Positions 4,550 through 20,522 of a stretch of DNA of 50,738 bases are shown here, one piece after another. Both the position numbers and the translations under genes were made by a program. The stretch lies in NCBI GenBank assembly GCA_964474965.1, contig CAYYUO010000001.1, forward strand, positions 1 through 50,738, written 5' to 3'. Source of the DNA: an uncultured Dehalococcoidales bacterium (GTDB lineage Bacteria > Chloroflexota > Dehalococcoidia > GIF9 > AB-539-J10). The notes under the pieces are model-generated. The model ran no database searches, had not been told where the DNA came from, and worked only from the letters and a program-made list of their open reading frames with translations. The number at the start of each line of letters is the position of its first letter. Position 1 is the stretch's first letter.

Positions 4550-4757
4550 GCATCCTCATGATAATTCCAGAATTCTGATAAATGTTATCGGTAAAAAGTG
4601 GGCACTTCTGGACTGAACAACCCGCTATATCGTGCAATGCCAATGTATTCGACTGGAATTTAGAGATACAGGGCAAAAATCAGTGAATCGAGTATTCATC
4701 AAGGTTTGTCAATGACTTATGCTCTCGCTCGTGGCGAAGCTGGAACATTCCAAATGA

Positions 4758-5063
4758 CTATCTATCGAGCCTTTGCGTTGATAATGCTCTCGCAGGTAAT
4801 GTGATATTTTCTCGGCGAGGGCTGAGAGCGCCTCTAACCATCAACCCGTCCACGGGACAGCTTTTCAGACTGGTAACGCTGAATATGCGCTCGGGCTTCA
4901 GTCCGGTCAGTGTTATTTTCCCAAGGGCTGGCATAAGGTGACGGCGGACTATTAGCTCGTATCCTTCGGCAGTCCTGGGGGTAAGGTTAGCCGAAGCGTA
5001 TCCTCTAAGCCACCTCTCCAAATCTTCTGCCGGGGTAACCTTACCAGGTTTAATGAAAGTCCA
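4758..5063 (-). pseudogene. Fragment of a tyrosine recombinase/phage integrase (N-terminal SAM-like domain only)
   Basis: ...KPGKVTPAEDLERWLRGYASANLTPRTAEGYELIVRRHLMPALGKITLTGLKPERI... resembles the integrase core-binding domain. No ATG, no catalytic domain. Double stop (5064-5069) upstream and degenerate remnants possibly down to ~4560. Confidence 0.55.
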
Positions 5064-5077
5064 TTATCAAGCTGGTT

Positions 5078-5407
5078 CAGCAGCAATCGTAGTCTGCCTT
5101 ACCGAGTACTTCAATAAACTCGATCTCTCGATGGCGTAGTCATACCGGCTTATTTCAAGCGTACTTTACTAAGTGAAGTTACTTACAGAATGGCTTTTAA
5201 ATTAAGTCTTTTCAGCAGTCAAAAATAAGCTCTGAATCAGATGGCAAGTATCAGGCAAGGTGATAAGCTAGAAACAAAGACAGAGCTGGCCTTGAGATTT
5301 TTCAGTGCAGCTCATGTCAATAAAGGAGGCAAAGAGAATGGCAACGAGGGGATATTTTATGATCACTGTGGAGGAGGAGTTCTACCGAAATTATTATCAG
5401 GATGTGC
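5078..5407 (+). repeat. Copy A of a 330-bp dispersed direct repeat (partner 17887..18216)
   Basis: 5078-5274 is identical base for base to 17887-18083 (197 bp, checked by hand). 5275-5407 is ~85% identical and covers the SD and first 23 codons of the RAM-domain gene. Confidence 0.95.
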
Positions 5408-5745
5408 TGAGAGACCTGAAAGCCGTGCCTGAGGTAGATTCCATCGAGCGAATCAGCGGTACATACAACCTCTTAGTGAAGGTTACAGCTCCTATGAGGG
5501 TAATCTTCGTCGCTAACAAAATACTACCCAACAAATGGGTCAAACAGTTCTACATCCTCAAGGTTGAGCCTTTCAAACCCCACGATTACGAAGGGCTCAC
5601 TGGTGATGAGCTTGCAAGGCTTGAAGAGTTAATTCCCCAGTCCTTGGGTGGTTATGGAGGGCTCACTGTTGAGGAGCGTTTAAGGATTAAAAGATTAATT
5701 CACGAGTCGCGGGGTAGTCACGGAGCTGCCGGTATACCGCCTTGA
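5338..5745 (+). CDS. Stand-alone Lrp/AsnC ligand-binding (RAM) domain protein with C-terminal extension, 135 aa
   Basis: MATRGYFMITVEEE...VLRDLKAVPEVDSIERISGTYNLLVKV fits the AsnC_trans_reg/RAM pattern and has no HTH. SD AGGAGG lies 8 nt upstream, so the start is moved from the track GTG at 5305. The tail has two GLTxxExxRxxxLI motifs. Confidence 0.7.
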   Translation: MATRGYFMITVEEEFYRNYYQDVLRDLKAVPEVDSIERISGTYNLLVKVTAPMRVIFVANKILPNKWVKQFYILKVEPFKPHDYEGLTGDELARLEELIPQSLGGYGGLTVEERLRIKRLIHESRGSHGAAGIPP

Positions 5746-5773: not shown

Positions 5774-6067
5774 ATGGCAACGAAGCGTTACTTGATGATC
5801 AACATGACCGAGGAAGCTTGCAAAAGTGGTTATCGGGATGTGTTGAGAGACCTGATAACTATACCCGAGGTGCAGTCCATTGAGCAGCTGGATGGTGTTT
5901 TCGACCTTATAGTGCAGGTCGAATGCCCTGCCACAGTGGGATATGCAGCAGCTGACGATCTTCTGGCCAAGGGGTGGGTGAAACGCTTGCAGGTTCTGCA
6001 GGTTGAGCCCACTGAGCCTAGTGAAATTATAAGGCCCACAGTGCTAGAGCTGACAAAAAGAGCTTAG
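5774..6067 (+). CDS. Stand-alone Lrp/AsnC ligand-binding (RAM) domain protein, 97 aa (paralogue of 5338..5745)
   Basis: MATKRYLMINMTEE...VLRDLITIPEVQSIEQLDGVFDLIVQV. SD AGGAGG upstream. Confidence 0.7.
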   Translation: MATKRYLMINMTEEACKSGYRDVLRDLITIPEVQSIEQLDGVFDLIVQVECPATVGYAAADDLLAKGWVKRLQVLQVEPTEPSEIIRPTVLELTKRA

Positions 6068-6121: not shown

Positions 6122-7270
6122 ATGATAGTGAAGACTCCTTACAGAGAAGCAGTAGACGTCCTGGTGGACGAAGGTGGGGAAACCCTCCAGTTATGTTACC
6201 AGTGTGCCTCTTGTACCGGTAGTTGTCCTTGGGGTTTGGTGAGAGATTTCGCTATACATAAAGTAATTCATGAAGCGCAATTGGGTGTAGTTGATTTTGA
6301 GGATGAAGGCATCTGGCTCTGTGTTGCCTGCGGGGCTTGTGTTAACCAGTGTCCCCGGGGTGTGAAGTTAATAGATGTAGTAAAGGCCATACGTAGAACT
6401 GTGATGGAGCTGGGTGTAGGTAAGATGCCTAGTTCACTACGAGTCGCACTGACAAGCATTGCCGGAGTAGGCAATCCAATGGGCGAGGCAAAGGAAAAAC
6501 GAGCAGATTGGGCCAAAGACATGGACGTAAAGACGTTCACTAAGGGTACGGATTTGCTGTATTTTCCCTGCTGCCTGCCTTGCTACGATCCTCTCTTAAA
6601 GGGTATAGCTGGGGCAACCGCTGCTATCCTAAACAAAGCAGGTATAGACTTTGGTATCCTGGGCGCCAACGAAACCTGTTGCGGAGAGGCAATCCGTAAA
6701 GCGGGAAACGAAAGCCTGTTCCAGAGTCTAGCCCAAAAGAACATTACTACTTTCAGCGAAAACTCAGTTAAGAAAGTTCTCGTCAGTTCCCCTCACTGTT
6801 ATCATACTTTTAAACACGAATACCCCGATCTTGGAAGCGACTTTGAGGTAATCCATTCTACTCAGTATTTATTACAGCTTATCAAGGACCACAAGCTGGA
6901 GTTCACTAAAGAGCTAAATATAAAAGTCGTTTATCACGATTCATGCTACCTTGGGCGTCACAACGGCATATATGACGAGCCCCGAGAAGTCTTAAGGAGT
7001 ATCCCGGGGCTGGAGCTGATTGAGTTTCCAGACTACAGGGAGGATAGCATCTGTTGCGGCGGAGGGTCAGGCAGGCTCTGGGTTGATACAGAGAAGGGAC
7101 AAAGATTCTCCGACATCAGGCTGAAACAGGCTATAGATTTAGGAGTTGAAGTACTGGCTGTTGCCTGCCCCTATTGTATGTCTATGTTCAAGGATAGCCA
7201 GTTAACGGTGGATGGAGGCGAGACTGTTGCAGTTAAAGACATCGCAGAATTAGTCAAGGAGGCGATGTAA
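6122..7270 (+). CDS. HdrD-like / fused HdrC-HdrB Fe-S protein (2x[4Fe-4S] + two CCG domains), 382 aa
   Basis: CYQCASCTGSCP and CVACGACVNQCP ferredoxin motifs, then CCG-type Cys motifs (FPCCLPCY, ETCCGE, DSCY, SICCGGG, CPYC). Confidence 0.8.
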   Translation: MIVKTPYREAVDVLVDEGGETLQLCYQCASCTGSCPWGLVRDFAIHKVIHEAQLGVVDFEDEGIWLCVACGACVNQCPRGVKLIDVVKAIRRTVMELGVGKMPSSLRVALTSIAGVGNPMGEAKEKRADWAKDMDVKTFTKGTDLLYFPCCLPCYDPLLKGIAGATAAILNKAGIDFGILGANETCCGEAIRKAGNESLFQSLAQKNITTFSENSVKKVLVSSPHCYHTFKHEYPDLGSDFEVIHSTQYLLQLIKDHKLEFTKELNIKVVYHDSCYLGRHNGIYDEPREVLRSIPGLELIEFPDYREDSICCGGGSGRLWVDTEKGQRFSDIRLKQAIDLGVEVLAVACPYCMSMFKDSQLTVDGGETVAVKDIAELVKEAM

Positions 7271-7286
7271 CTATAAGGAGATAGAT

Positions 7287-9284
7287 ATGGGCAGAAATGG
7301 ACATAGGAGAATTGGAGTCTATATTTGCCATTGCGGGTTAAATATCGCCGGCACGGTGGATGTAGAAGAAGTAGCTGAATATGCCGCCAGTCTGGACTCA
7401 GTAGTGGTGTCCCGTCATTATAGATATATGTGTTCCGATCCAGGGCAAGCGCTGATCAAGGAAGATATCAAGAACCTAGGCCTTAACCGGATAGTTGTCG
7501 CTTCTTGTTCACCAAGAATGCATGAGCTAACCTTCCGCCAAGTTTGCCAGGATAGTGGGCTAAACCCCTACCTATATGAACAAGCGAACATTCGGGAACT
7601 CTGCTCCTGGGTTCATGACGATAAAAAGATAGCTACCGAGAAAGCAAAAGACATAGTAAGGGCTGCAGTGAGACGGGTTTGCTGGAACGAGCCGCTGGAG
7701 GTTAAGGAAGCGACGTTTAACTCCAATGTTTTGGTAGTGGGTGGTGGCATCGCTGGTATACAGGCATCTTTAGATATTGCTAATGGTGAGCATAAAGTCT
7801 ACTTAGTGGAGAGAGAGCCCTCCATCGGCGGGCACATGATTCAGCTTGATAGAACCTTCCCTACTCTGGATTGCTCTGAATGCATCCTTACCCCCAAGAT
7901 GGCTGATGTAGGGCGGCATCCTTTTATTGAGCTTCTAGCCTACAGTGAAGTAGAGGAAGTATCAGGCTCTATAGGCCATTTTAAGGTAATAGTCAGGAAG
8001 AAAGCGCGGCATATAGACGAGAGCAAGTGTATCGGCTGTGGTGTATGTGAGGAAAAATGCCCGTGGAAGGTGGATAGTGAGTTTGAGATGGGCTTAGCAA
8101 AGAGAAAGACAATTTACATCCCATTTGCTCAAGCTATACCCAATCTGCCGACAGTAGATGCAGACCACTGTGCTTATATTCAATCAGGGGGCAGGAAATG
8201 TGGAGCCTGTATAAAGTTCTGTGAAGCAGGAGCTATAACTCCGGAGACTCTTCTTAATCAGACTGACCAAATTGTTGAGTTCGAGGTGGGCTCAATCATC
8301 GTGACTACCGGCTATGATGTCTTTGACCCCAGCGTGATGCCCCGATATGGATATGGTAAGTATGACAATGTGATAACTGGGCTGGAATTTGAGAGGATAA
8401 CCTGTGCCGCGGGTCCAACCGGCGGTAGAATTGTGCTTAAGGATGGTCGAGAGCCAGAAAGTGTGGCTATCATACACTGCGTCGGTAGTCGTGACCAGAA
8501 CTATCACGAGTATTGCTCACGTGTTTGTTGTATGTATGGGCTCAAATATGCCCATCTGATAAAAGAATTTACCAATGCTGAAGTTTATGAGATGTACATT
8601 GATATGCGTTGTTTTGGAGAAGGCTACGAGGAATTCTACAAGCGTGTTTCTGAAGAGGGAGTTACTTTTATAAGGGGAAAAGTGGCTAAGGTCACTGACC
8701 GCGCCATAACTGAGGAGGAAAAGGGGAAGTTGATCGTGTTGTGTGCGGATACTGTGCTGGGGAGCCTGATACGGGTTCCTGTAGACATGGTTATACTGTG
8801 CACAGCCCTGGAGGCACATTCAGATGCAGGGCAAGTCGCCAAGATCTTTACTCTCAACCGAAGGGCAGACGGCTTCTTCTTAGAGCGGCATGTTAAGCTC
8901 GACCCGGTAGCTACGCCAACCGATGGAGTCTTTATTGCTGGCTGCTGTGAAGGTCCAAAGGATATTCCTGATACTGTTGCTCAAGCGTCGGCAGCAGCAG
9001 CCAAAGTACTGTCGCTGATAAGTAAAGGTAAAATTACGCTTGAATCTGCCGTAGCGCAGGTAGATGAAACACGCTGTCTGGGCTGTGGACGGTGCGAAGA
9101 AATATGCGATTTTCATGCTCCCAGGGTCATTCATACAGACGGGCGCTGGGTTTCCACTATAAATGAGACCTTGTGTAAGGGCTGTGGCGCCTGTGCTGTT
9201 GCTTGCCCAACAGGTGCTATGTCAATCCGGCATTTCACTCAGGAGCAGATACTCAGCATGGTCGAGGCTTTAACGGAGGTATAA
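7287..9284 (+). CDS. hdrA: Heterodisulfide reductase subunit A-like flavoprotein, 665 aa
   Basis: N-terminal IGVYICHCGLNIAG domain, VVGGGIAGIQASLD FAD fold, LDCSECILTPKM, VGSRD...YCSRVCCMY and C-terminal 2x CxxCxxCxxxCP. Confidence 0.88.
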   Translation: MGRNGHRRIGVYICHCGLNIAGTVDVEEVAEYAASLDSVVVSRHYRYMCSDPGQALIKEDIKNLGLNRIVVASCSPRMHELTFRQVCQDSGLNPYLYEQANIRELCSWVHDDKKIATEKAKDIVRAAVRRVCWNEPLEVKEATFNSNVLVVGGGIAGIQASLDIANGEHKVYLVEREPSIGGHMIQLDRTFPTLDCSECILTPKMADVGRHPFIELLAYSEVEEVSGSIGHFKVIVRKKARHIDESKCIGCGVCEEKCPWKVDSEFEMGLAKRKTIYIPFAQAIPNLPTVDADHCAYIQSGGRKCGACIKFCEAGAITPETLLNQTDQIVEFEVGSIIVTTGYDVFDPSVMPRYGYGKYDNVITGLEFERITCAAGPTGGRIVLKDGREPESVAIIHCVGSRDQNYHEYCSRVCCMYGLKYAHLIKEFTNAEVYEMYIDMRCFGEGYEEFYKRVSEEGVTFIRGKVAKVTDRAITEEEKGKLIVLCADTVLGSLIRVPVDMVILCTALEAHSDAGQVAKIFTLNRRADGFFLERHVKLDPVATPTDGVFIAGCCEGPKDIPDTVAQASAAAAKVLSLISKGKITLESAVAQVDETRCLGCGRCEEICDFHAPRVIHTDGRWVSTINETLCKGCGACAVACPTGAMSIRHFTQEQILSMVEALTEV

Positions 9285-9285
9285 G

Positions 9286-9750
9286 ATGAATAAGTTTGAA
9301 CCTCAAATTATAGCTTTTGCCTGCAATTGGTGCACTTATGCCGCAGCTGATCTCGCTGGAACAAGTCGCATCCACTATGCACCAAATGTGCGGGTAATAA
9401 GGGTTATGTGCAGCGGGATGGTAAACCCTATATATGCCCTCAAAGCCTTCGAGGGAGGTGCTGATGGGGTTTTGATTGCTGGTTGTCATTATGTAGACTG
9501 CCATTATCTCAACGGTCCAGTGAAATGCGATGCAATGTTTGAAAAATTGAAGAATGTGGTTCATACCCTTGGCCTAGAGGATGAGCGGTTGAGGCGTGAG
9601 ATGATATCTGCCTCCGAGGGGGTAATATTTGCCCGAGTAATTGAAGAGATGGTTGACCGGCTTAAAAAGCTAGGCCCCTCACCTCTCAAAAGGGCGAGAG
9701 AGGAGGCACCCTCACTTCTCAAAAGGGCGAGAGAGGAGGCAACAGTATGA
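9286..9750 (+). CDS. mvhD: MvhD/FlpD-type (methyl-viologen-reducing hydrogenase delta-like) 2Fe-2S protein, 154 aa
   Basis: IIAFACNWCTYAAADLAG...VMCSGMVNP...GADGVLIAGCH..DCHY matches the FlpD/MvhD family. Start is 2 nt after the hdrA stop. Confidence 0.85.
   Translation: MNKFEPQIIAFACNWCTYAAADLAGTSRIHYAPNVRVIRVMCSGMVNPIYALKAFEGGADGVLIAGCHYVDCHYLNGPVKCDAMFEKLKNVVHTLGLEDERLRREMISASEGVIFARVIEEMVDRLKKLGPSPLKRAREEAPSLLKRAREEATV
9676..9741 (+). repeat. 2 x 33-bp in-frame tandem repeat at the mvhD 3' end
   Basis: ccctcacCtctcaaaagggcgagagaggaggca / ccctcacTtctcaaaagggcgagagaggaggca, one mismatch. Encodes PSPLKRAREEA-PSLLKRAREEA. Confidence 0.95.
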
Positions 9751-9851
9751 ACTTGGATGACATCATCAAGGAATCTGTCAGTAAGCTGAAACAATTAGGC
9801 CCATCGCCTTTCGGAAACGTCAAAAATAAAGTCGCACAGGTGGCAATATGA
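9747..9851 (+). CDS. 34-codon micro-ORF echoing the MvhD C-terminal helix (MNLDDIIKESVSKLKQLGPSPFGNVKNKVAQVAI)
   Basis: ATGA overlap with the mvhD stop (9747-9750), and its TGA overlaps the next gene's ATG (9848-9851). SD AGGAGG lies 7 nt upstream. IIKESVSKLKQLGPSP parallels MvhD VIEEMVDRLKKLGPSP. Confidence 0.4.
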   Translation: MNLDDIIKESVSKLKQLGPSPFGNVKNKVAQVAI

Positions 9852-11023
9852 TGGCACTGGAGAGCGTTGTTAAGAAAACTAGTTTAGAGGATATTATCAG
9901 GGAGAGTAAGACCTTCTATTGCCTGGAGTGCGGCAAGTGTTCAAGTATATGTCCAATTTCCCGATATGACCCCTCTTACTCTCCGCGAGCGATGGTAGAA
10001 GATGCACTTCTGGGACTTGAAGGTGATCTGATCCACAATAAAGAGTTGTTTTCTTGTTTAACCTGCGGTGCCTGCCAACTCAAATGTCCCTCCGATGTCA
10101 ACTATCTTCTCTTCATCCGGAAGATGAGAGCTTTGGCCTCAAATAACGGCGAACATGGGGACTGCGCTCATTCCGGCACCATACAATCTCTAATTCGACT
10201 CATGGCAAATACTGGTGTAGAACAGAGGAGACTGGAATGGCTGTCTAATGGATACCGAACCTCTGACCAGAGCAAGGTTCTGTTTTGGGTTGGCTGTGCC
10301 CCTTACTTTGACCCTATCTTTGAAGACCTCGGGGTCAAAGTCACCGATGTTGCCAAAGGAAGCTTAAGAATACTCAATTCGTTGGGGGTAGAACCGATGC
10401 TGCTTCCCGACGAGAAATGCTGCGGGCATGATATGCTCTGGACCGGCGATGTAGAAACCTTTGAGAAACTGGCCCAGAGGAATGCAGCAATGATAAAGGA
10501 GGCGGGGGTGGAAAAGATAATCTTCTCCTGTCCCGAATGCTACCGCACATTTAAGGAAGATTATCCTAATTACGTAGAGATTGACTGCGAATTGCAGCAC
10601 ATCAGCGAGTTTCTGTCTGAGGCTATAGAAAAAGATGGCCTGAGGTTTAAAAAGATCAGGAAAAAGGTAACCTACCATGATCCCTGTAGATTGGGAAGGC
10701 ACCTGGGCGTTTATGAGCCGCCTAGGGAAGTAATCCAGGCCATCCCGGGCATAGAATTAGTTGAAATGGAACAGAGCAGGGAGGAATCTCTTTGCTGCGG
10801 CACCAGCGCCTTTACTAACTGTGACTCATATTCCAAGCGGATAAGAATTGAGAGATTGCTTGAGGCAAAAGCCACTGGTGCTGATACCCTTATAACCACC
10901 TGCCCTAAATGTCAAATTCACTTCAGGTGTGCCATGGTAAACAAGGGGGAGGAAAAGGGACCGGATATTGAGATTGAGGTTATGGACATGGTGAACCTGG
11001 TAGCAAATGCTTTGGAGGTTTAG
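9848..11023 (+). CDS. HdrD-like / fused HdrC-HdrB Fe-S protein, 391 aa (second copy)
   Basis: CLECGKCSSICP and CLTCGACQLKCP motifs, then CCG motifs (EKCCGHD, FSCPECY, HDPCRLGR, SLCCGTS, TCPKC). Confidence 0.8.
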   Translation: MMALESVVKKTSLEDIIRESKTFYCLECGKCSSICPISRYDPSYSPRAMVEDALLGLEGDLIHNKELFSCLTCGACQLKCPSDVNYLLFIRKMRALASNNGEHGDCAHSGTIQSLIRLMANTGVEQRRLEWLSNGYRTSDQSKVLFWVGCAPYFDPIFEDLGVKVTDVAKGSLRILNSLGVEPMLLPDEKCCGHDMLWTGDVETFEKLAQRNAAMIKEAGVEKIIFSCPECYRTFKEDYPNYVEIDCELQHISEFLSEAIEKDGLRFKKIRKKVTYHDPCRLGRHLGVYEPPREVIQAIPGIELVEMEQSREESLCCGTSAFTNCDSYSKRIRIERLLEAKATGADTLITTCPKCQIHFRCAMVNKGEEKGPDIEIEVMDMVNLVANALEV

Positions 11024-11027
11024 AACG

Positions 11028-13754
11028 ATGAGTGACTCTGTTTTGGTAATTGGTGGTGGCATAGCAGGTATTCAAGCTTCTATCGACCTGGCCAATATGG
11101 GCTTTCAAGTATATCTTGTGGAGAGGTCGCCCAGTATCGGCGGGAGGATGGCACAGCTGGATAAGACATTCCCTACCAATGATTGTGCCATGTGTATTCT
11201 AGCCCCTAAGATGATCGAGTGTTATAGACACCGGAACATCAGGGTATTGAGTTACTCCGAAGTTGCTGCGGTAGAGGGTGAGTTGGGTAATTTCGAAGTC
11301 GAGATACTAAAGAAACCCGGATATGTTGATGAGACCAAGTGCACCGGCTGTGGAGAATGTGCCCAAGTTTGCCCGGTCGAACTGAAAAACGAATTCGACC
11401 AGGGAATCGGCAACAGAAAAGCAATATACAAGCCTTTTGCCCAAGCTATTCCCAACATTTACGTCATTGACAAAAGGGGGACAGCGCCCTGTAAGGCAGC
11501 CTGTCCTGTGGGTCTGGATATCCAGGGATATATTGCTCTCATTTCTCAGGGTAAATTTAAAGAGGCCTTTCATCTCATCAGGCAAAAGGTTATCCTACCG
11601 GCTACCGTTGGCAGGGTATGCACTCACCCGTGTGAGACAGAATGTAATCGTGGGAAAGTGGATGAACCAATTGCTATCGCTGCTCTGAAAAGGTTCGTGG
11701 CTGACCATGAACTGGATACAAGGACAGAGGAGATAGCACCTGCCCCCCGGACACAAGATGCGAAGGTGGCTGTTGTCGGTTCCGGGCCGGCTGGCTTAAC
11801 TGCGGCTAACGACCTGGTTCTTATGGGCTATGGAGTGACTATTTTCGAGGCATTACCTGTTCCCGGTGGTATGCTGGCAGTGGGTATCCCTGACTATCGC
11901 CTGCCTAAGGAAATGCTTAAAAGGGAAATCGAGGATATCCAGAAGCTTGGAGTGGAGATAAGGCTTAACAGTCCCGTGGGTAAAAAAGGTCTAAAACTAG
12001 ATGACCTTTGGCAAGAGGGTTACAAGGCGATTTTCATCGCCGTAGGGGCCCACAAAAGTGCCAATCTTGATATTCCCGGCGAAGGCTTTGAAGGCGTCTA
12101 TCACGGTGTTTCCTTTCTAAGAGATGTCAACCTTGGGAAGAAGGTTACACCGGGCGAAAAGATAGCAGTAGTCGGCGGCGGTAATGTAGCCATCGATGCT
12201 GCCCGAACAGCTCTCAGGCTCGGCTCCAGAGAAGTAACCATCGTATATCGTAGGTCCAGACATGAGATGCCGGCAAATGAAGAGGAGATAGTGGAGGCTG
12301 AGCATGAGGGGATCAAAATTCAATACCTGGTTACCCCGGTAAGAATTTTGGGAGAGGATGGAAGAGTATCAGGTATGGAGTGTATTAAGATGGAACTCGG
12401 GGCGCCCGATGCCAGCGGTAGGAGACAGCCTATAGCTATAGAAGGCTCGCAGTTTACTATAGACGTGGACACGGTTATCCTGGCCATTGGGCAGAGCCCC
12501 GACCTTTCGCTGCTTCCTAAGGATAGTAGATTCCAGGTATCGCCCAGAGGGACATTGGCAGTTGATGATAATAGCCTGGCCACCAGTATGCCCGGGGTAT
12601 TCGCCGGTGGAGATGCTGTGCTTGGGCCAGCCACCGTAGTACAGGCCATAGCAGCAGGACATAGAGCAGCCACCGCCATTGACAGCTATCTGAGAGACGA
12701 GATGATTCCACCTGAACAAGAACCACTCCCGATTACAACCATTGAGGATGTGGACTTGAGGGGCAAAGAGCAGAAAAATCGCGTGGCAATGCCTACCGTG
12801 GCCCCTAAGAAGAGGTTAACCGATTTTAGAGAGGTGAACCTCGGTCTCAGCGCAAAAATGGCGATAGAGGAAGCAAAGAGGTGCCTGAACTGTGGTGGCT
12901 GTTCTGGATGCCGGGAATGTGAAAAGGTCTGCCAGGCTAAGGCTATAAACCACGAAATGAAGGAGGAATTCCTGAGACTGAATGTCGGTGCCATTATCCT
13001 GGCTACTGGTTTCGACTTCTACGACGTTTCAAAACTTGGAGAATATGGTTATGGAAGGATAGCCAATGTTATCACTGCTATTGAGTATGAAAGATTAACA
13101 TCAGCTTCCGGCCCTACATGTGGTGAACTCAAGCGCCCTTCAGATGGCAATATTCCGTCCAATATAGCCTTCATCCAGTGTGTTGGCTCCCGCGACTTCA
13201 ATAACATGCCATATTGCTCCAGCGTATGCTGTATGCATGCTATTAAGGAAGCCATACTAGCCTATGAACATCATCCCGGGACAAAATCTACTATCTTTTA
13301 TATGGATTTGAGAGCGGTGGGGAAACGGTTTCAGGAATATGTTACCAGAGCTAAGGAAGAATACAACGTAACATATATCAGAGGTCGCCCCGGGAGAATT
13401 GCTCTCAATACCACTAATGGCAACCCGATCATCTGGTATGAGAACACTACTACCGGGGAAACGAAGACTTTTGAGGCAGAGCTGGTGATTCTCTCCCAGG
13501 CTTTGATTCCGTCTAAAGGCATTGAAGAGTTAGCCAGCATATTGGGCATAAGTCTAGACAAGTACGGGTTCGCTGAAATTCCAGATAAGCTGTTCTCTCC
13601 TCTCGACACCACTAGACCGGGTATCTTTGCCTGTGGCTATGCTCATAGTCCAAGAGATATCCCTGACTCTGTCGTTCAAGGTTCGGCAGCGGCAGATAGA
13701 GCTGCTGAAGCTACAACAGCTAGAACGCCTAGCTTTGTAGCGGGAGGTGTTTGA
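11028..13754 (+). CDS. HdrA-like flavoprotein with an inserted GltD/NfnB-type NAD(P)H:FAD oxidoreductase module (HdrL-like), 908 aa
   Basis: HdrA N-part (VIGGGIAGIQASIDL, NDCAMCILAPKM, CTGCGECAQVCP). Then a full GltD-like unit (PCKAACPV...CTHPCETECNRG, VVGSGPAGLTAA, VVGGGNVAIDAAR, VFAGGDAV). Then the HdrA continuation (ATGFDFYD, CVGSRD, YCSSVCCMH). Start moved to ATG 11028, which follows SD GGAGG. Confidence 0.82.
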   Translation: MSDSVLVIGGGIAGIQASIDLANMGFQVYLVERSPSIGGRMAQLDKTFPTNDCAMCILAPKMIECYRHRNIRVLSYSEVAAVEGELGNFEVEILKKPGYVDETKCTGCGECAQVCPVELKNEFDQGIGNRKAIYKPFAQAIPNIYVIDKRGTAPCKAACPVGLDIQGYIALISQGKFKEAFHLIRQKVILPATVGRVCTHPCETECNRGKVDEPIAIAALKRFVADHELDTRTEEIAPAPRTQDAKVAVVGSGPAGLTAANDLVLMGYGVTIFEALPVPGGMLAVGIPDYRLPKEMLKREIEDIQKLGVEIRLNSPVGKKGLKLDDLWQEGYKAIFIAVGAHKSANLDIPGEGFEGVYHGVSFLRDVNLGKKVTPGEKIAVVGGGNVAIDAARTALRLGSREVTIVYRRSRHEMPANEEEIVEAEHEGIKIQYLVTPVRILGEDGRVSGMECIKMELGAPDASGRRQPIAIEGSQFTIDVDTVILAIGQSPDLSLLPKDSRFQVSPRGTLAVDDNSLATSMPGVFAGGDAVLGPATVVQAIAAGHRAATAIDSYLRDEMIPPEQEPLPITTIEDVDLRGKEQKNRVAMPTVAPKKRLTDFREVNLGLSAKMAIEEAKRCLNCGGCSGCRECEKVCQAKAINHEMKEEFLRLNVGAIILATGFDFYDVSKLGEYGYGRIANVITAIEYERLTSASGPTCGELKRPSDGNIPSNIAFIQCVGSRDFNNMPYCSSVCCMHAIKEAILAYEHHPGTKSTIFYMDLRAVGKRFQEYVTRAKEEYNVTYIRGRPGRIALNTTNGNPIIWYENTTTGETKTFEAELVILSQALIPSKGIEELASILGISLDKYGFAEIPDKLFSPLDTTRPGIFACGYAHSPRDIPDSVVQGSAAADRAAEATTARTPSFVAGGV

Positions 13755-13755
13755 C

Positions 13756-15435
13756 ATGTCTGATGTTCGCATTGGTGTCTTTGTATGTCACTGTGGCCGC
13801 AATATCGGCGCGTATATAGATGTCCCCCAAGTGACAGAGTACGCCAGAGGGCTGCCAAATGTGGTACATGCCGAGCACAACCTATTCACCTGTTCCGTGG
13901 AGGGAACCTCGGCAATAAAGAAGGCAACAGCGGAACACAATCTTAACCGGGTTGTAGTAGCCTCATGCACCCCCAGAACGCATGAGACACTCTTCAGGTC
14001 TATTTGCGAGGAGGCCGGGCTAAACAAATACCTGTTCGAGATGGCTAATATAAGAGATCAATGTTCTTGGATACATATGGAGTATCCCAAGGAAGCCACG
14101 GAAAAAGCTAAGGGACTTGTCGCGTCGGCGGTTGCCAAGGCTCGACTACTCGAGCCATTAGAAGAGATTGAGATAGAGGTGCTGCCATCCTGTCTGGTAA
14201 TTGGTGGCGGCATAGCCGGGATGACCGCGGCTTTAAACCTGGCAGATCAAGGTTTCCATGTCAACCTGGTGGAGAAGGAAACAGAGCTTGGCGGCAACCT
14301 GTCGACCCTACATAAGCTTTTCCCTACCAATCAGGATGCAAAGGAATTAATTACCCCTCTCATACGCCAAGTGAAGGAACATGACAAAATAAGTACCTAC
14401 CTCAGTGTAAAGGTCAAGGCAGTAACCGGGTTCATAGGTAATTACGATGTTACCCTAGACCATGAAGGTGAGGAGATCAAGCTTAAGGCGGGGACAATCA
14501 TAGTTGCCGTCGGGGCTGAGGAATTCAAGCCAACAGGACAATATGGTTACGGGGAAATGACGGGAGTACTCACTCAACTGGAGCTAGAAAAGCAGATGAA
14601 AGAGGGCAATGTTGATGGACAAAACATCGTGATGATCAACTGTGTGGGCAGTCGTACCGCCGAAAGATCATACTGCAGCCGATTTTGTTGCGTAGCTGCC
14701 ATAAAGAATGCCGCCCTCATCAAGGAAAACAACCCGGCGGCAAATGTGTGGATTCTACATCGTGATTTGATGGCTTATGGCGTAGACTTCGAAGACTACT
14801 ACCGCAAGGCTCAAGAAGCGGGCGTCAGATTCATCCGTTATGATCTGGCAAGGCCGCCTGAGGTTATCGGGAATGGGCATGTTGAAGGGGTAAGAGTATA
14901 CCATCAGCTAAGGCAAAGCGAGCTGGAGCTCCCTTGTGACAAGGTTGTGCTCACGACCCCCCTTGTTCCTCGCAGTGACAACGATGAGATAAGCAAGATA
15001 CTGAAGGTCCCCTTGAGCCAGGAAGGTTTCTTCATGGAGGCACATCTCAAGTTACGTCCCGTAGAGTTTGCTACCGATGGCATCTTCATATGTGGTTCGG
15101 CCCGCTGGCCGGTAGAAGTGAGCGAGGCCATCTTCCAAGGTTATGCTGCTGCAGCAAAGGCAGCAATACCTATGAGAATGGGCTACGTGAAACCCGAGGC
15201 TATAACTGCTTGCGTAGATAAGGGACGCTGTGCGGGGTGTGGTATCTGCGCTACTTTGTGCCCGTATAACGCGATTGAGCTGAAGTCAGATAATGGTAAA
15301 AAGAGTTCGAGTGTAATTACTGCATTATGTAAAGGTTGCGGAACCTGTGCCGCCGCCTGTCCCTCTGGGGCAATATCAATGGACCACTTCAAAACTGAAC
15401 AGATTGTGGCACAAATAGAAGCACTGTTCAAGTAG
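13756..15435 (+). CDS. hdrA: Heterodisulfide reductase subunit A-like flavoprotein, 559 aa (third paralogue)
   Basis: IGVFVCHCGRNIGA, VIGGGIAGMTAALNL, CVGSRT..SYCSRFCCVAA and C-terminal CAGCGICATLCP / CKGCGTCAAACP. ATG lies 1 nt after the upstream stop, with SD GGGAGG. Confidence 0.85.
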   Translation: MSDVRIGVFVCHCGRNIGAYIDVPQVTEYARGLPNVVHAEHNLFTCSVEGTSAIKKATAEHNLNRVVVASCTPRTHETLFRSICEEAGLNKYLFEMANIRDQCSWIHMEYPKEATEKAKGLVASAVAKARLLEPLEEIEIEVLPSCLVIGGGIAGMTAALNLADQGFHVNLVEKETELGGNLSTLHKLFPTNQDAKELITPLIRQVKEHDKISTYLSVKVKAVTGFIGNYDVTLDHEGEEIKLKAGTIIVAVGAEEFKPTGQYGYGEMTGVLTQLELEKQMKEGNVDGQNIVMINCVGSRTAERSYCSRFCCVAAIKNAALIKENNPAANVWILHRDLMAYGVDFEDYYRKAQEAGVRFIRYDLARPPEVIGNGHVEGVRVYHQLRQSELELPCDKVVLTTPLVPRSDNDEISKILKVPLSQEGFFMEAHLKLRPVEFATDGIFICGSARWPVEVSEAIFQGYAAAAKAAIPMRMGYVKPEAITACVDKGRCAGCGICATLCPYNAIELKSDNGKKSSSVITALCKGCGTCAAACPSGAISMDHFKTEQIVAQIEALFK

Positions 15436-15570: not shown

Positions 15571-16236
15571 ATGGATAAGACCAAGGTTCTGCTCGCTGAG
15601 GATCATATAGTAGTGCGAGAAGGCACTCGTGAGCTTATACAGCGTCAACCGGACATGGAAGTCGTTGGTGAAGCCAGCGACGGTGAAGAAGCAGTGGCGC
15701 TGACCGCCAAGCTGCGCCCGAATGTAGTGATAATGGACATCGCCATGCCCAAGCTCAATGGCATAGAGGCTACCAAGCAGATAAAGCAGCACAACCCGGC
15801 TGTAGCAGTGCTGGTACTCACTGCCTATCCTAATGAGGAGTACGTCTTTGCCCTCTTGGAGGCAGGAGCAGCTGGCTACTTGCTCAAGAACGTGCGGGGA
15901 AGCCAATTTATTGATGCTATTCGGGCAGTAAACAGTGGGGAGTCGGTGCTCCATCCTACAATTGCCCGCAGGGTTATAGAACGACTAACATCCCCGGCTA
16001 ACAGTAGCACCGAGGCACAGGCAACCGAGCCCCTGAGTGAGCGCGAGTTGGATGTATTGAAGTTAGCCGCCAAAGGCATAAGCAATAAGGATATTGCCGA
16101 GCAATTATTCCTAAGCCCACGCACGGTCCAGGTCCATCTGGGACACATCTTTACCAAGCTGGGCGTAGCCTCGCGCACTGAGGCTGTATTATACGGCTTG
16201 AGAAGAGGCTGGTTGATGCTCGAAGACCTTCCCTGA
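15571..16236 (+). CDS. NarL/FixJ-family response regulator (REC + LuxR-type HTH), 221 aa
   Basis: VLLAEDH...VVIMDIAMPKLNG receiver motifs. C-terminal LSERELDVLKLAAKGISNKDIAEQLFLSPRTVQVHLGHIFTKLGV. Confidence 0.92.
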   Translation: MDKTKVLLAEDHIVVREGTRELIQRQPDMEVVGEASDGEEAVALTAKLRPNVVIMDIAMPKLNGIEATKQIKQHNPAVAVLVLTAYPNEEYVFALLEAGAAGYLLKNVRGSQFIDAIRAVNSGESVLHPTIARRVIERLTSPANSSTEAQATEPLSERELDVLKLAAKGISNKDIAEQLFLSPRTVQVHLGHIFTKLGVASRTEAVLYGLRRGWLMLEDLP

Positions 16237-16274
16237 TCTGTGCCCGGTTCAAATACTTGAGGGTTGTTACGCAG

Positions 16275-17720
16275 ATGGCTCGATATCTACCAGCCCGGGT
16301 GCTAAAGGTTGTGCGTAATCCCCATTTCTGGGCTGTGGCGGCAATGTTTGCCATTGTCACAGTCTTCCAATACTCGCAACAGACGCTAGGCACAGATTTA
16401 CCATTCCCAGGTCTAAGTCGACATAGTGTAGAACGAGTTTTCCTCCTCGCTCCTGTAACTTATGCCGGTTTTTTCCTTGGCACAAGGGCAGGTATAGCTA
16501 GTTTAGCGGTGGCGTGCGCCATTATGTTGCCCCGGGCCATTTTTATCTCTCCCCACCCCGGCGATGCTTTGCTTGAAAGCGCCGGTGTTGTTGCCATTGG
16601 TGCTGTTGTGAACTTGTTGTTCTATTTGTTTCGAAAGGAAAGGAATCGCTCCCAACAAGCCCTTTCAGCACTGGAAACAGCTAACCAGGAAGTTCGAGAG
16701 TCGCAGGAAAGCTATAAGGGCTTGTTCGAAGGTGCCTATGACGCCATCTGGGTTTATGATTTGGAAGGTAACATTCAATCGGCAAACAAGGCAGCTGCCA
16801 GACTAAACGGTTACCCTGTGGAAGAGTTACTGAGGATGAACATAAGGTCGTTCCTCAGTGATGAAAGCTTACACCTGGCAAGAGAGGTTCAAGATAAGTT
16901 AACTAGAAATGAACCGGCAGCCATGCCCTACGAACAAAGGATAATTAAGAAAGATGGCTCAGAGGCAATATGTCTGCTTGCCACCAGCTTGATTTCCAGT
17001 AATGGTGAGCCAAAGGGTTTTCAGAGTATCGCCAGAGATGTAACTGAAGAGAAGCGAATGCAAGAGAATTTACGCTATTATTTGCAGCAGATTACCAAAG
17101 CTCAGGAGGAGGAGCGGAGGCGTATGGCACGAGAGCTTCATGACGATACAGCCCAACAATTGGTGGTACTCGCACGCAGGTTGGATAACCTTCTTTGTAA
17201 TGCCGACCGTTTATCCCAGCAGGATATTACATTCCTGGAGGGGGTAAGACAGCAAACCGATGAGATATTGGATGGAGTGCATCGTTTTTGCCAGGACCTG
17301 CGACCCTCAGTACTGGATGACCTGGGTCTCCTGCCGGCGCTGCAATCGCTGACCTCCGACCTAACGGAGCACTTTGGAATACCTATTGCCATGGGTAGTG
17401 CCGGCTCTGTGCGGCGTTTGTCTCCCGAGATAGAATTGATACTATTCCGTATCGCTCAAGAAGGACTAAGGAACATGTGCCGGCATTCAAAGGCATCCAG
17501 ATGCTGGATCATGATAGAATTCAGCAATGATAAGGTCGTTTTAAATGTTAAAGACAATGGCCGGGGCTTTAAGTTGCCGGATAGGGTAGAAGACCTGGCC
17601 GCTGTTGGCAAGCTTGGGCTTGCTGGGATGCAAGAGCGGGCCCGACTTATCGGTGGCAAGCTAACAATAGAGTCAAAGCCAGGCAAAGGGACAACCGTGA
17701 GCGTGGAGATCCCAATTTAG
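16275..17720 (+). CDS. Membrane sensor histidine kinase (TM region + PAS + HisKA_3 + HATPase_c), 481 aa
   Basis: Hydrophobic N-terminal ~120 aa. PAS-like region (YKGLFEGAYDAIWVYDLEGN). H-box RMARELHDDTAQQL. ATPase motifs DNGRGF and GLAGMQERA..GG. Start taken at ATG 16275 rather than the track TTG at 16257. Confidence 0.88.
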   Translation: MARYLPARVLKVVRNPHFWAVAAMFAIVTVFQYSQQTLGTDLPFPGLSRHSVERVFLLAPVTYAGFFLGTRAGIASLAVACAIMLPRAIFISPHPGDALLESAGVVAIGAVVNLLFYLFRKERNRSQQALSALETANQEVRESQESYKGLFEGAYDAIWVYDLEGNIQSANKAAARLNGYPVEELLRMNIRSFLSDESLHLAREVQDKLTRNEPAAMPYEQRIIKKDGSEAICLLATSLISSNGEPKGFQSIARDVTEEKRMQENLRYYLQQITKAQEEERRRMARELHDDTAQQLVVLARRLDNLLCNADRLSQQDITFLEGVRQQTDEILDGVHRFCQDLRPSVLDDLGLLPALQSLTSDLTEHFGIPIAMGSAGSVRRLSPEIELILFRIAQEGLRNMCRHSKASRCWIMIEFSNDKVVLNVKDNGRGFKLPDRVEDLAAVGKLGLAGMQERARLIGGKLTIESKPGKGTTVSVEIPI

Positions 17721-17886
17721 GACAGCCTGGGACACTTTGAGTTTAACATTTACTAGTTGGATATATAAGCGCAAATATCAAGGAAAGGTCTGCCAGGGGA
17801 CACGAGGATTTGCTCACTTGTGGTCCCATTGTTTTAATAGGAATCCACTACCTGAATTCCAAGCGTCTTTAGCCAGACTAGGATAA

Positions 17887-18216
17887 CAGCAGCAATCGTA
17901 GTCTGCCTTACCGAGTACTTCAATAAACTCGATCTCTCGATGGCGTAGTCATACCGGCTTATTTCAAGCGTACTTTACTAAGTGAAGTTACTTACAGAAT
18001 GGCTTTTAAATTAAGTCTTTTCAGCAGTCAAAAATAAGCTCTGAATCAGATGGCAAGTATCAGGCAAGGTGATAAGCTAGAAATAAAGGCAGAGCCAGTC
18101 CTGAGATTTTTCAGCACAGCTCATGTCAATAAAGAGGACAAAGAGAATGGCAACGAGGGGATATTTTATGATCACTGTGACGGAGGGTTTCTACCGAAAT
18201 TATTACCAGAATGTGC
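17887..18216 (+). repeat. Copy B of the 330-bp dispersed direct repeat (partner 5078..5407)
   Basis: See copy A: 197 bp identical, then ~85% identity through a truncated RAM-gene 5' end. Confidence 0.95.
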
Positions 18217-18221
18217 ACTGA
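18147..18221 (+). pseudogene. 24-codon 5' stub of a RAM-domain gene (MATRGYFMITVTEGFYRNYYQNVH*); possible uORF overlapping the acs start
   Basis: First 11 codons are identical to 5338.. . The SD is degraded (AAAGGAGGC -> AAAGAGGAC). The stop at 18219-18221 overlaps the acs ATG (18211) by 11 nt. Confidence 0.6.
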
Positions 18222-20214
18222 ACTATCTTTACCATTTGAGTCCAGATATTTGCCTCTGAGGAAATTCCTTGATATTTACCAGGAGTCCCTGGAGGAGCCA
18301 GAGGAGTTCTGGGCAGAACAGGCACGTCAGCTGGACTGGTTTAAGACCTGGGACAAGGTTCTGGAATGGAATCCACCCTTTGCCAGATGGTTTGTAGGTG
18401 GGAGATTAAACGCATCGCATATATGTGTGGACCGCCATGTAAAGACGTGGCGCAGAAGTAAGGTGGCTATATACTGGGAAGGGGAGCCTGGAGATGTTAG
18501 AGTTTTAAGTTATTCCACATTATATCGCGAAGTCAACAGATGCGCCTCAGTCTTAAAGAACTGTGGCGTAGGTGATGGGGACAAGGTTGCTTTATATCTG
18601 CCCATGATTCCCGAGCTGCCCATTTTCATGCTGGCCTGTGCCAGGATTGGGGCCATTCACACAGTGATTTTCTCTGGTTTCAGTGCTCAAGCATTAGCTG
18701 ACAGGGTCAATGATATACAGGCCAAGTTACTGGTAACTGCCGATGGGGGATTTCGGAAGGGGAAGGTAATCCCGCTAAAGAGTATAACCGATGAGGCCTT
18801 AACCAAGTGCCCCTCGGTGGAGAGGGTTATTGTAGTTAAAAGGGCTGGTGTTTCGGTAACCATGAAGTCACCAAGGGATTGCTGGCTGCATGACGTGCTT
18901 GTTAAAGCGGCGCAATTTGTGGAACCAGAGCAGGTGGAATCGAATCACCCCCTCTATATACTGTATACCTCGGGGACTACGGGCAAGCCTAAAGGAATTG
19001 TTCACAGTACCGGTGGCTATCTAGTCCAGAACTATTCTGCTTATAAGTGGGTTTTCGATCTTCGAGAGGAATCGGTCTACTGGTGCACTGCTGATGTTGG
19101 TTGGGTCACCGGACATAGCTCAACTGTATATGCCCCGCTGGCACATGGGGCGGCCATAGTACTTTATGAGGGGGCACCGGACTATCCTACAATTGAGAGA
19201 TGGTGGGATATCATCGAGAAATACGGAGTTAGCGTGTTTTACACCTCACCTACAGCCATCAGGATGTTTATGGGATATGGAGAGGCAATGCTGAAGGAGC
19301 ATAACCTCAGCAGTCTGGAACTCCTGGGGAGTGTGGGAGAGCCCATCAATCCCGAAGCCTGGCTCTGGTTTTACCGCCATGTTGGCGGTGAGAGATGCCA
19401 CGTTGTTGATACATGGTGGCAGACCGAAACCGGTGGCATCATGATTTCACCCACCCCTGGCATAATCGAGTGTGTGCCTCTGAAGCCTGGCTCAGCAACA
19501 TTCCCGCTGCCGGGGATAGAGGTTGATGTCGTTGGTGAGGATGGCAAGCCGGTGTCGCCGGAGCAGAGAGGTTTCCTGGTAATAAAGAGACCCTGGCCGG
19601 GGATGCTCCTCGGCGTACACGGAAACCCGGAACGCTACAAGGAATCCTACTGGTCACGGTTCCCTGGCGTTTACTATACCGGCGACTATGCAGTAAAAGA
19701 CAAAGATGGATACTTCTGGGTCTTGGGAAGGGCTGACGAGGTGCTTAAAATCGCCGGACATAGAATAGGAACTGTTGAATTGGAGGACGCTGCCATCTCA
19801 CATCCTCAGGTGGCTGAAGCAGCGGTTGTGGGCAAAGAGGACCCGGTGAAAGGTGAGAGCATCATCATCTTTGCCAGGCTCAAAGAAGGTATTGACCCTT
19901 CTCCGGACCTGGAAAAAGATCTTGCTGGTCACATGAGAAAAGTGGTGGGTCCTATAGCAGTTCCTGATGAAGTTTATTTCGTCCCCAGGCTACCCAAGAC
20001 GAGGAGTGGCAAAGTTCTGCGGCGGGTTTTGAAAGCCGTGGCCAATAATACCAGCGTGGGAGACCTCACAACCCTGGAAGACAAAAGCTCCGTGGAGGAA
20101 ATAATCAAGGTCTATCAGGACCTCAAAGCCATAAGACAAAGCCATGACGGCTTCATCCCTGAACTAATAGCACGTAAGGAGGTAAAATGGAAATTACTCA
20201 ACAAGACTGGATAG
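18211..20214 (+). CDS. acs: AMP-forming acetyl-CoA synthetase, 667 aa
   Basis: EEFWAEQARQLDWFK, YTSGTTGKPKG, YWCTADVGWVTGHS, GDYAVKDKDGYFWVLGRADEVLKIAGHRIGTVELE, PKTRSGKVLRR. The exact start is uncertain because ATG 18211 has no SD. Confidence 0.92.
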   Translation: MCTELSLPFESRYLPLRKFLDIYQESLEEPEEFWAEQARQLDWFKTWDKVLEWNPPFARWFVGGRLNASHICVDRHVKTWRRSKVAIYWEGEPGDVRVLSYSTLYREVNRCASVLKNCGVGDGDKVALYLPMIPELPIFMLACARIGAIHTVIFSGFSAQALADRVNDIQAKLLVTADGGFRKGKVIPLKSITDEALTKCPSVERVIVVKRAGVSVTMKSPRDCWLHDVLVKAAQFVEPEQVESNHPLYILYTSGTTGKPKGIVHSTGGYLVQNYSAYKWVFDLREESVYWCTADVGWVTGHSSTVYAPLAHGAAIVLYEGAPDYPTIERWWDIIEKYGVSVFYTSPTAIRMFMGYGEAMLKEHNLSSLELLGSVGEPINPEAWLWFYRHVGGERCHVVDTWWQTETGGIMISPTPGIIECVPLKPGSATFPLPGIEVDVVGEDGKPVSPEQRGFLVIKRPWPGMLLGVHGNPERYKESYWSRFPGVYYTGDYAVKDKDGYFWVLGRADEVLKIAGHRIGTVELEDAAISHPQVAEAAVVGKEDPVKGESIIIFARLKEGIDPSPDLEKDLAGHMRKVVGPIAVPDEVYFVPRLPKTRSGKVLRRVLKAVANNTSVGDLTTLEDKSSVEEIIKVYQDLKAIRQSHDGFIPELIARKEVKWKLLNKTG

Positions 20215-20510
20215 TATATGAGGAGGTCAGGACAAACCTAATAGCTAAACTGACAGGACGAGTTCGTTTTGGCAGGGTGCTAGGCTTGCCCAAAGAAAAG
20301 TTAGAGTGGATTCGAAACCACTACTGCGAGCTGAGTAAAGAATTCAACATGGAAATTACTCAACAAGACTGGATAGCATATGAGGAGGTCAGGACAAACC
20401 CAATAGCTACACTGACAGGACGAGTTCGTTTTGGCAGGGTGCTAGGCTTGCCCAAAGAAAAGTTAGAGTGGATTCGAAACCACTACTGCGAGCTGAGTAA
20501 AGAATTCAAC
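20187..20510 (+). repeat. 2 x 162-bp near-perfect tandem duplication
   Basis: 20187-20348 versus 20349-20510 gives 159/162 identical (hand-aligned). The junction shares ATGG microhomology with the downstream ATGGGGCAATGA. Confidence 0.95.
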
Positions 20511-20522
20511 ATGGGGCAATGA
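20187..20522 (+). CDS. Small protein made of two tandem 54-aa units (unknown family, HTH-like), 111 aa
   Basis: Strong SD AAGGAGG 4 nt upstream, inside the acs 3' end (28-nt overlap). Unit MEITQQDWI[V/A]YEEVRTN[L/P]IA[K/T]LTGRVRFGRVLGLPKEKLEWIRNHYCELSKEFN occurs twice, followed by MGQ*. Confidence 0.6.
   Translation: MEITQQDWIVYEEVRTNLIAKLTGRVRFGRVLGLPKEKLEWIRNHYCELSKEFNMEITQQDWIAYEEVRTNPIATLTGRVRFGRVLGLPKEKLEWIRNHYCELSKEFNMGQ

Follow-up and report, generated by a model that had tools for sequence, protein, structure and literature searches.

How two copies of one repeat can be identical over part of their length and clearly diverged over the part that adjoins it is the question raised by this locus, which belongs to an uncultured lineage of the Dehalococcoidia (Chloroflexota). 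By sequence comparison within the window, which here denotes the whole 50.7-kb stretch of DNA that was analysed, positions 5078-5274 were found to equal positions 17887-18083 over 197 nt without a mismatch, confirming the perfect block described in the initial annotation of this DNA; identity was gone at the first base to the left of 5078 and 17887, and mismatches on the right begin at 5275/18084. The adjoining 133 nt (5275-5407 versus 18084-18216) carry 17 mismatches and no gaps, an identity of 87% where ~85% had been estimated before, and homology reaches its right limit at about 5407/18216. The probability that all 17 differences fall by chance in the last 133 of the 330 sites is (133/330)^17 = 2e-7. 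The repeat search recovered two copies only in the 50.7-kb window, and these are direct repeats spaced 12.8 kb apart. Hereafter, they are referred to as copies A and B, the identical 197 nt as tier 1 or the block, and the diverged 133 nt as tier 2. Copy A and the genes around it comprise the following features.

4758-5069, minus strand: decayed tyrosine-integrase fragment adjoining copy A; Pfam Phage_int_SAM_3 (4758-5021), E = 1.7e-7
5078-5274, plus strand: copy A tier 1, the 197-nt block upstream of RAM1, equal to 17887-18083 and read here as the homogenised tract
5275-5407, plus strand: copy A tier 2, a 63-nt leader with a Shine-Dalgarno sequence (SD, AAAGGAGG) and RAM1 codons 1-23
5338-5745, plus strand: RAM1, 135 aa; Pfam PF01037, E = 2.4e-6
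5774-6067: RAM2, a paralogue of RAM1, lying 3′ of it
6122-15435: hdr/flx-like genes for HdrD-like CCG/Fe-S proteins, HdrA-like flavoproteins and an MvhD/FlpD protein
15571-16236: NarL/LuxR-type response regulator (RR)
16257-17720: PAS histidine kinase (HK)

RAM1, the first gene of the operon, encodes a stand-alone Lrp/AsnC ligand-binding (RAM) domain protein that consists of the domain alone, and the exact protein was found on at least 23 metagenome contigs with the same synteny. The initial annotation had placed the SD and the first 23 RAM codons in the diverged part of the repeat, which was borne out by the ATG at 5338 and by the Pfam assignment (AsnC_trans_reg). Copy A represents the 5′ region native to RAM1, with tier 1 probably being the promoter together with the upstream regulatory region. 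The integrase fragment to its left, of ~87-100 aa, was found by frame translation to have stops on either side, and it retains the N-terminal SAM-like domain alone, the catalytic domain being absent. A double stop beside copy A had been taken as the end of this fragment; the stops are indeed there (TGA TAA, minus strand, 5064-5069), but they lie on the 5′ side of the fragment, which is cut off at that point and not ended by them. The region of the integrase remnant (4600-5050) is 97-98% identical to L100 and L088, two of the related contigs, compared with ~92% for the flanking DUF2851 gene and RAM1 and ~89% for their third codon positions, and this high identity could stem from recent inter-lineage recombination or from an unrecognised functional element.

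The surroundings of copy B, which lies downstream of the RR and HK genes, are as follows.

17721-17886, plus strand: spacer from HK to copy B, with a hairpin at 17796-17827 followed by a T-rich tract to 17835
17887-18083, plus strand: copy B tier 1, the same 197-nt block, upstream of acs
18084-18216, plus strand: copy B tier 2, a diverged leader with a weakened SD (AAAGAGGA) and RAM1-derived codons
18147-18221, plus strand: RAM1 remnant, an upstream ORF (uORF) of 24 codons (MATRGYFMITVTEGFYRNYYQNVH) with a TGA stop, read from the sequence
18211-20214, plus strand: acs (acetyl-CoA synthetase); Pfam ACAS_N, AMP-binding and AMP-binding_C

With the HK stop at 17720, copy B begins 166 nt past the kinase gene, as had been noted. 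The earlier suggestion that two paralogous RAM genes follow the two copies does not hold, since copy B instead precedes the 24-codon RAM1 remnant, which is fused to acs. The acs ATG at 18211 sits inside the repeat and has no SD of its own, and the uORF, ending in its TGA stop, shares 11 nt with the start of acs. The N-terminus read from this ATG, MCTELSLPFESR, matches MAELSLPFQSR of the L078 Acs, so that ATG 18211 is likely the true start of acs instead of the TTG at 18250 used by the gene callers (654 aa), and the acs start annotation is corrected on this basis. The 667-aa Acs gave no record in an exact protein look-up because the callers begin the gene at TTG 18250.

In every B copy the RAM1 remnant is an open uORF. 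Measured from the last base of the uORF stop to the A of the acs ATG, the distance is -10, -7 or +4 nt in eight of the nine B copies, the uORF/acs junction differs among lineages, and the uORF peptide is unconserved among them past residue ~13. An SD-bearing upstream ORF whose stop overlaps or abuts the acs start is thereby kept in the relatives, the arrangement that marks a coupled uORF-gene pair. The overlap of the uORF stop with the acs ATG suggests, at the level of sequence, that acs translation is coupled to the RAM1 remnant; the remnant would then have persisted as a short uORF whose stop, placed over the acs ATG, couples translation of the downstream gene. The L078-type acs has its own SD (GGAGGAGG), and coupling is therefore not obligatory.

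In the spacer in front of copy B, the hairpin appears in the predicted fold, and the terminator scan gives no call there. The first ~128 nt after the HK gene are 80% conserved in the outgroup L105, which lacks both copy B and acs, and the hairpin and T-rich tract are kept in that outgroup as well (L105:11520-11560). The hairpin and T-tract likely act as the RR-HK terminator, and their conservation after the kinase gene suggests that acs needs a promoter of its own.

Three other repeats in the window are recorded here as separate observations. At 20184-20507, a 162-nt perfect-register tandem duplication (98% identical) lies inside a 111-aa ORF (20187-20522) that overlaps the end of acs, and this duplication is also present in metagenome contigs. 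Two 33-nt units that are 97% identical stand in tandem at 9676-9741, in the 3′-terminal part of the FlpD/MvhD-like gene; gene calls in related contigs place a separate 34-aa ORF at this site, and the length of the gene that follows, 390 or 391 aa, varies with the strain. At 47517-48296, a 300-nt unit is present four times in direct orientation, with 65-76% identity among the units and spacings of 114, 252 and 114, in what is probably a repetitive coding region.

The age of the duplication was assessed from relatives. In the sister species L072, whose RAM1 is 89% identical, the DUF2851 gene, the integrase remnant, the block and RAM1 are all kept at 88% nucleotide identity, and in the distant genomes L077 (= CP070793), L101, L103 and L104 homology runs from the left edge of the block into RAM1. 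Every relative examined had the block in front of RAM1-type genes, at 83-96% identity. A metagenome scan that used a conserved 34-mer from the block as query yielded 23 loci, of which 12 have the block before RAM1-RAM2-HdrD and nine have the order RR-HK, block, RAM1 remnant and acs, with Acs 87-99% identical; the other two contigs stop within or just past the block, and all 21 loci that extend beyond it have the RAM1 start or the RAM1 remnant next, collinear with the window. The recurrence of the B arrangement in nine loci indicates that copy B is old and conserved within the subclade. In the outgroup L103/L105, copy A is present together with the whole operon, and the kinase gene is followed by mscL, the block and acs being absent there. 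When the 559-aa HdrA-like protein was used as query in a scan of GTDB genomes, the best matches were Dehalococcoidales MAGs at 67-75% identity, and none of the nine closest loci listed contained RAM1, Acs or the block, which made these genomes uninformative for the duplication. A search of the literature on Dehalococcoidia hdr and acs genes and on stand-alone RAM proteins found nothing particular to this locus.

The left flank of copy B in relatives bears on the extent of the original event. In L078 and L091, 152 nt to the left of copy B are 81% identical to window positions 4929-5080, and this homology to the integrase remnant indicates that the original duplication reached into that remnant. 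Homology also continues further left in L078, L081 and L086, and hence the abrupt edges at 5078/17887 represent later lineage-specific deletions.

Several relatives carry rearranged versions of the region. L104 has two block copies 1.2 kb apart, each before a RAM paralogue. The RAM1/RAM2 pair is tandemly duplicated, giving four to six small RAM-domain genes, in L077 (10001-11570), L101, L103 and L104, and the extra pair in L104 is the one accompanied by the second upstream block. In L087 and L099, sequence runs from a B-type left flank through the block into full-length RAM1-RAM2-HdrD; the order there is HK, a B-type spacer with a 1.37-kb insertion, the block and the full set of RAM1, RAM2 and HdrD, an arrangement that resembles an A x B recombinant or the junction of a tandem duplication. 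These two contigs show recombination inside the block in relatives as well. In L086 (4014-5410) the block and RAM1 are followed by a 35-aa fragment from the 3′ end of acs, which separates this RAM1 from a second one.

Independent assemblies of the locus, from many samples, were available as population contigs from JGI sediment metagenomes, retrieved by exact-protein look-ups and 99.35-99.7% identical to the window. Copy A was present on 16 of these contigs and copy B on 5, and one 37.8-kb contig (L026) spans both, which excludes the concern of the initial annotation that the second copy could be a mis-assembly. Within this population, four of the 197 block sites (5122, 5157, 5169 and 5221) separate A from B, and the 17 downstream differences are those of the window, so that the two-tier contrast is 4/197 versus 17/133 (2% versus 13%; Fisher p = 1.2e-4). 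Only in this genome or assembly are the two copies perfectly identical over the block. The sequence common to both window copies follows the A copies of the population at 5122 and its B copies at 5157, 5169 and 5221, the window base is the outgroup or parsimony-ancestor state at three of the four population-variable sites, and the derived A at 5157 is common to both window copies and L026 copy B. The window block therefore either stands near the ancestral state or results from a further small B-to-A conversion; as three of the four variable sites are ancestral in the window, no conversion after the split is strictly required.

The alternative that survives best is that the 100% identity is an assembly consensus drawn through a near-identical repeat whose real copies differ at a few sites. 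Assemblers' bubble-popping merges closely spaced differences in near-identical repeats, and the variable sites, being 12-54 nt apart, fall in the range merged in this way; four block sites do distinguish the 16 A from the 5 B copies found elsewhere, and the window holds a mixed sequence of the two. A consensus of this kind, however, would account only for the step from 98% to 100%, whereas the tiers of 2% and 13% recur in every independent assembly. Moreover, the window is 0.35-0.65% off the contigs overall, so four differences in 394 nt amount to ordinary strain divergence, and its bases at three of the four sites are those of the outgroup. We therefore regard a consensus artefact as unlikely.

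Gene conversion between the copies was addressed with neighbour-joining trees with bootstrap, built separately for tier 1 and tier 2. In the tier-1 tree, both window copies, both L026 copies and the B copy of L093, a close relative, form one clade with 94% bootstrap. In the tier-2 tree, the same-species clade receives 5% support, the B copies of the window, L026 and L093 group together (96%), and the A copies of the window and L026 (100%) are nested among foreign A copies. The distances follow the same pattern. Over tier 1, the two window copies differ at 0/197 sites and the two L026 copies at 4/197, versus 8-21/197 to most foreign copies and a maximum of 52/197; over tier 2, the A copy of the window is 5-9/84 from several foreign A copies and 11/84 from its own B copy.

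Individual sites tell which changes were exchanged. The derived bases 5128T, 5130G, 5143T, 5146C and 5156C are found in both window copies, both L026 copies and the B copy of L093, and each of them is carried by at most one of ~20 other copies. As these five derived sites are common to both paralogs, five parallel mutations would be needed if there had been no transfer between the copies. In tier 2, position 5371 is A in all nine B copies and G in 14 of 16 A copies; recent, copy-specific changes are seen at 5292 (A only) and at 5280 and 5372 (B only), the change at 5306 in the A copy of the window species occurs also in the L090 and L095 B copies, and the B change at 5378 occurs also in the L080 B copy. 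Tier-2 changes were not exchanged during the period when tier-1 changes were. The derived site 5321 in tier 2 is common to both paralogs, and the tier boundary is therefore not absolute. Thus, for the single species that supplied certain same-genome A/B pairs (the window and L026), we observed within-genome similarity exceeding orthologous similarity, incongruent trees, derived sites confined to the lineage and an overlong identical run, the hallmarks by which gene conversion is recognised.

Collectively, the two-tier repeat is probably an old partial duplication of the RAM1 5′ region whose upstream 197 nt have been re-homogenised by gene conversion. Of the explanation in the initial annotation that the block was recently copied or converted, the part on conversion is upheld, backed by the discordant trees of the two tiers and by the five derived sites unique to the species. 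In the proposed course of events, a segment from the integrase remnant into the RAM1 start would have been duplicated in the clade ancestor and placed directly before acs, downstream of the RR and HK genes, and copies A and B would then have diverged. Recombination between the direct repeats would repeatedly have homogenised the upstream 197 nt by non-reciprocal gene conversion, that is, concerted evolution, and the downstream 133 nt would have escaped, probably through clustered mismatches, through locus-specific selection on the SD, the uORF and the acs start, or through both. Such a history yields the divergence of 0% (this genome) or 2% (sister population) beside one of 13%.

Purifying selection on a structured RNA offers another route to identity: strong constraint could have preserved the identity of a block that acts as a non-coding RNA or as a leader of riboswitch type, and both a non-coding RNA and very strong constraint had been proposed in the initial annotation. 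Its clade-wide conservation upstream of RAM1-type genes and its invariant stretches, such as GCTCTGAATCAGATGGC, point in this direction. Between species, however, the identity of 83-96% compares with 77-90% at the third codon positions of neighbouring genes, a divergence of about the synonymous rate that excludes extreme constraint, and the sister population tolerates four substitutions in the block. Rfam gave no match for the whole window at the gathering threshold or for 4950-5450 at E ≤ 10, and the minimum free energy of the single-sequence fold of the block was no better than that of shuffles (z = -0.19). With RNAalifold on 21 copies, whose low sequence variation limits the power of the test, the covariation term was -0.55 kcal/mol and 2 of 59 pairs were compensatory; a hairpin of the form TATCA-N7-TGATA is disrupted in L103 and L104 with no compensatory change. 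Selection, in addition, cannot account for derived changes common to both paralogs, and we consider this explanation improbable.

Two candidate coding readings of the block, a 12-aa ORF (MAFKLSLFSSQK) and a 63/69-aa ORF starting MASIRQ, were rejected because indels of 1-2 nt break the block ORFs in L078, L080, L091 and L077.

A single old duplication without conversion, after which the 197 nt mutated far more slowly as a mutational cold spot or under constraint, would agree with the block being slightly more conserved than tier 2 in most pairwise comparisons between species. Yet species differ by 4-17% in the block, five of these changes stand in both paralogs of the window species only and would require parallel mutation at five sites, and the tier-1 tree clusters the copies by genome and not by locus, so that there is very little to be said for a cold spot.

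Least credible of all is the suggestion, also made in the initial annotation, that the block is a small mobile or site-specific element (a MITE or an integrase-linked cassette) that recently landed at both sites: the integrase fragment beside copy A, the integrase-like remnants that L078 and L091 carry to the left of copy B and the abrupt left limit of homology speak for it, but the repeat search found no inverted pairs in the window and two copies only, no target-site duplication is common to the flanks of A and B, the plasmid and phage collections gave no match, the integrase is a fragment without its catalytic domain, the RAM1 start or remnant follows the block collinearly at all 21 metagenome loci that extend past it, species at 12-20% divergence have an orthologous block at locus A, and the abrupt left edges are lineage-specific deletions, given the homology further left in L078, L081 and L086.

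With duplication followed by gene conversion as the preferred reading, what the homogenised tract may do was considered next. Candidate control elements were picked out in the block by eye.

5231-5269, plus strand: candidate core promoter, consisting of a palindrome, a -35 element, a 17-nt spacer, TGn and a -10 element
5231-5241: 11-bp palindrome (TCTGAATCAGA), abutting the candidate -35 element
5241-5246: candidate -35 element, ATGGCA
5261-5263: candidate TGn
5264-5269: candidate -10 element, TAAGCT
18040-18078: copy B counterparts of the candidate promoter elements

The predicted transcription start site, at about 5276, coincides with the tier boundary. In the aligned copies, the TG and hexamer positions T1, A2 and T6 are invariant, whereas the n (A, C or T) and hexamer position 4 vary; this check included relatives found independently of the motif (L072, L077, L101, L103 and L104), in which TG and TAA-CT are unchanged. 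A strict sigma-70 consensus scan and a terminator scan of both copies found nothing, and these scans, Rfam and the repeat search agree with the initial annotation in turning up no convincing sigma70 promoter, riboswitch signature or terminal inverted repeats. From its sequence features, the block is a plausible carrier of an extended -10 promoter. As the preferred reading, and one that fits the anatomy of the locus, we infer that it may serve as a shared promoter/operator, and if it does, acs and the hdr operon would be co-regulated.

A broader proposal is made tentatively, as a possibility that is more likely wrong than right: the ~260-nt unit of the block and the RAM1 N-terminal codons may form a clade-specific regulatory module, an operator/promoter with a translated leader, that ties expression of the Hdr/Flx-type complex to acetate activation by Acs in marine-sediment Dehalococcoidia, conversion being favoured for keeping the two control regions in step. 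The operator would then be recognised by the neighbouring PAS-kinase/NarL-type regulator or else by partners with a RAM domain.

Gene conversion here is a new instance of a known process, and as the cause is an ordinary evolutionary one, duplication plus conversion, no new mobile element or RNA class is indicated. The locus provides a clean natural case in which concerted evolution is limited to non-coding upstream DNA and is documented across metagenomic populations. For uncultured sediment Dehalococcoidia it also yields a testable idea, namely that acs and the hdr/flx-like operon may be under one control region and that translation of acs may pass through a relic uORF.

Compared with known systems, the two repeats resemble the att direct repeats around an integrated island in lying 12.8 kb apart with integrase-like sequence beside one of them. 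An att-bounded integrated element was nevertheless rejected: the integrase is dead and lies outside the interval, the hdr operon is present in the outgroup L103/L105 without copy B, and A and B are collinear with a gene start and not with a tRNA or att core.

Overlap of a stop with a start codon couples translation in many bacterial operons, and leader uORFs are likewise known. The acs leader resembles overlapping-uORF coupling in that a short SD-bearing ORF ends near the acs ATG in eight of nine lineages and the window-type acs has no SD; unlike dedicated leader peptides, the acs uORF is the relic of a RAM-domain gene. The arrangement also recalls promoter/leader capture by partial gene duplication, as acs stands behind a collinear copy of the RAM1 upstream region, SD and first codons, with its start codon inside the copied sequence; co-regulation is here a putative trait, read from the anatomy of the locus.

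Concerted evolution by gene conversion is seen in dispersed bacterial paralogs, for example tufA/tufB in Salmonella and the rRNA operons. Bacterial gene conversion and concerted evolution were reportedly reviewed by Santoyo and Romero in 2005. The present tract differs from those examples in being non-coding upstream DNA, in being short (197 nt) and in having one side at the end of homology. As with tufA/tufB and the rRNA operons, direct repeats on the same chromosome are closer to each other than to their orthologues over a contiguous tract, new substitutions reach both copies, and the flanking homology keeps the older, locus-specific history.
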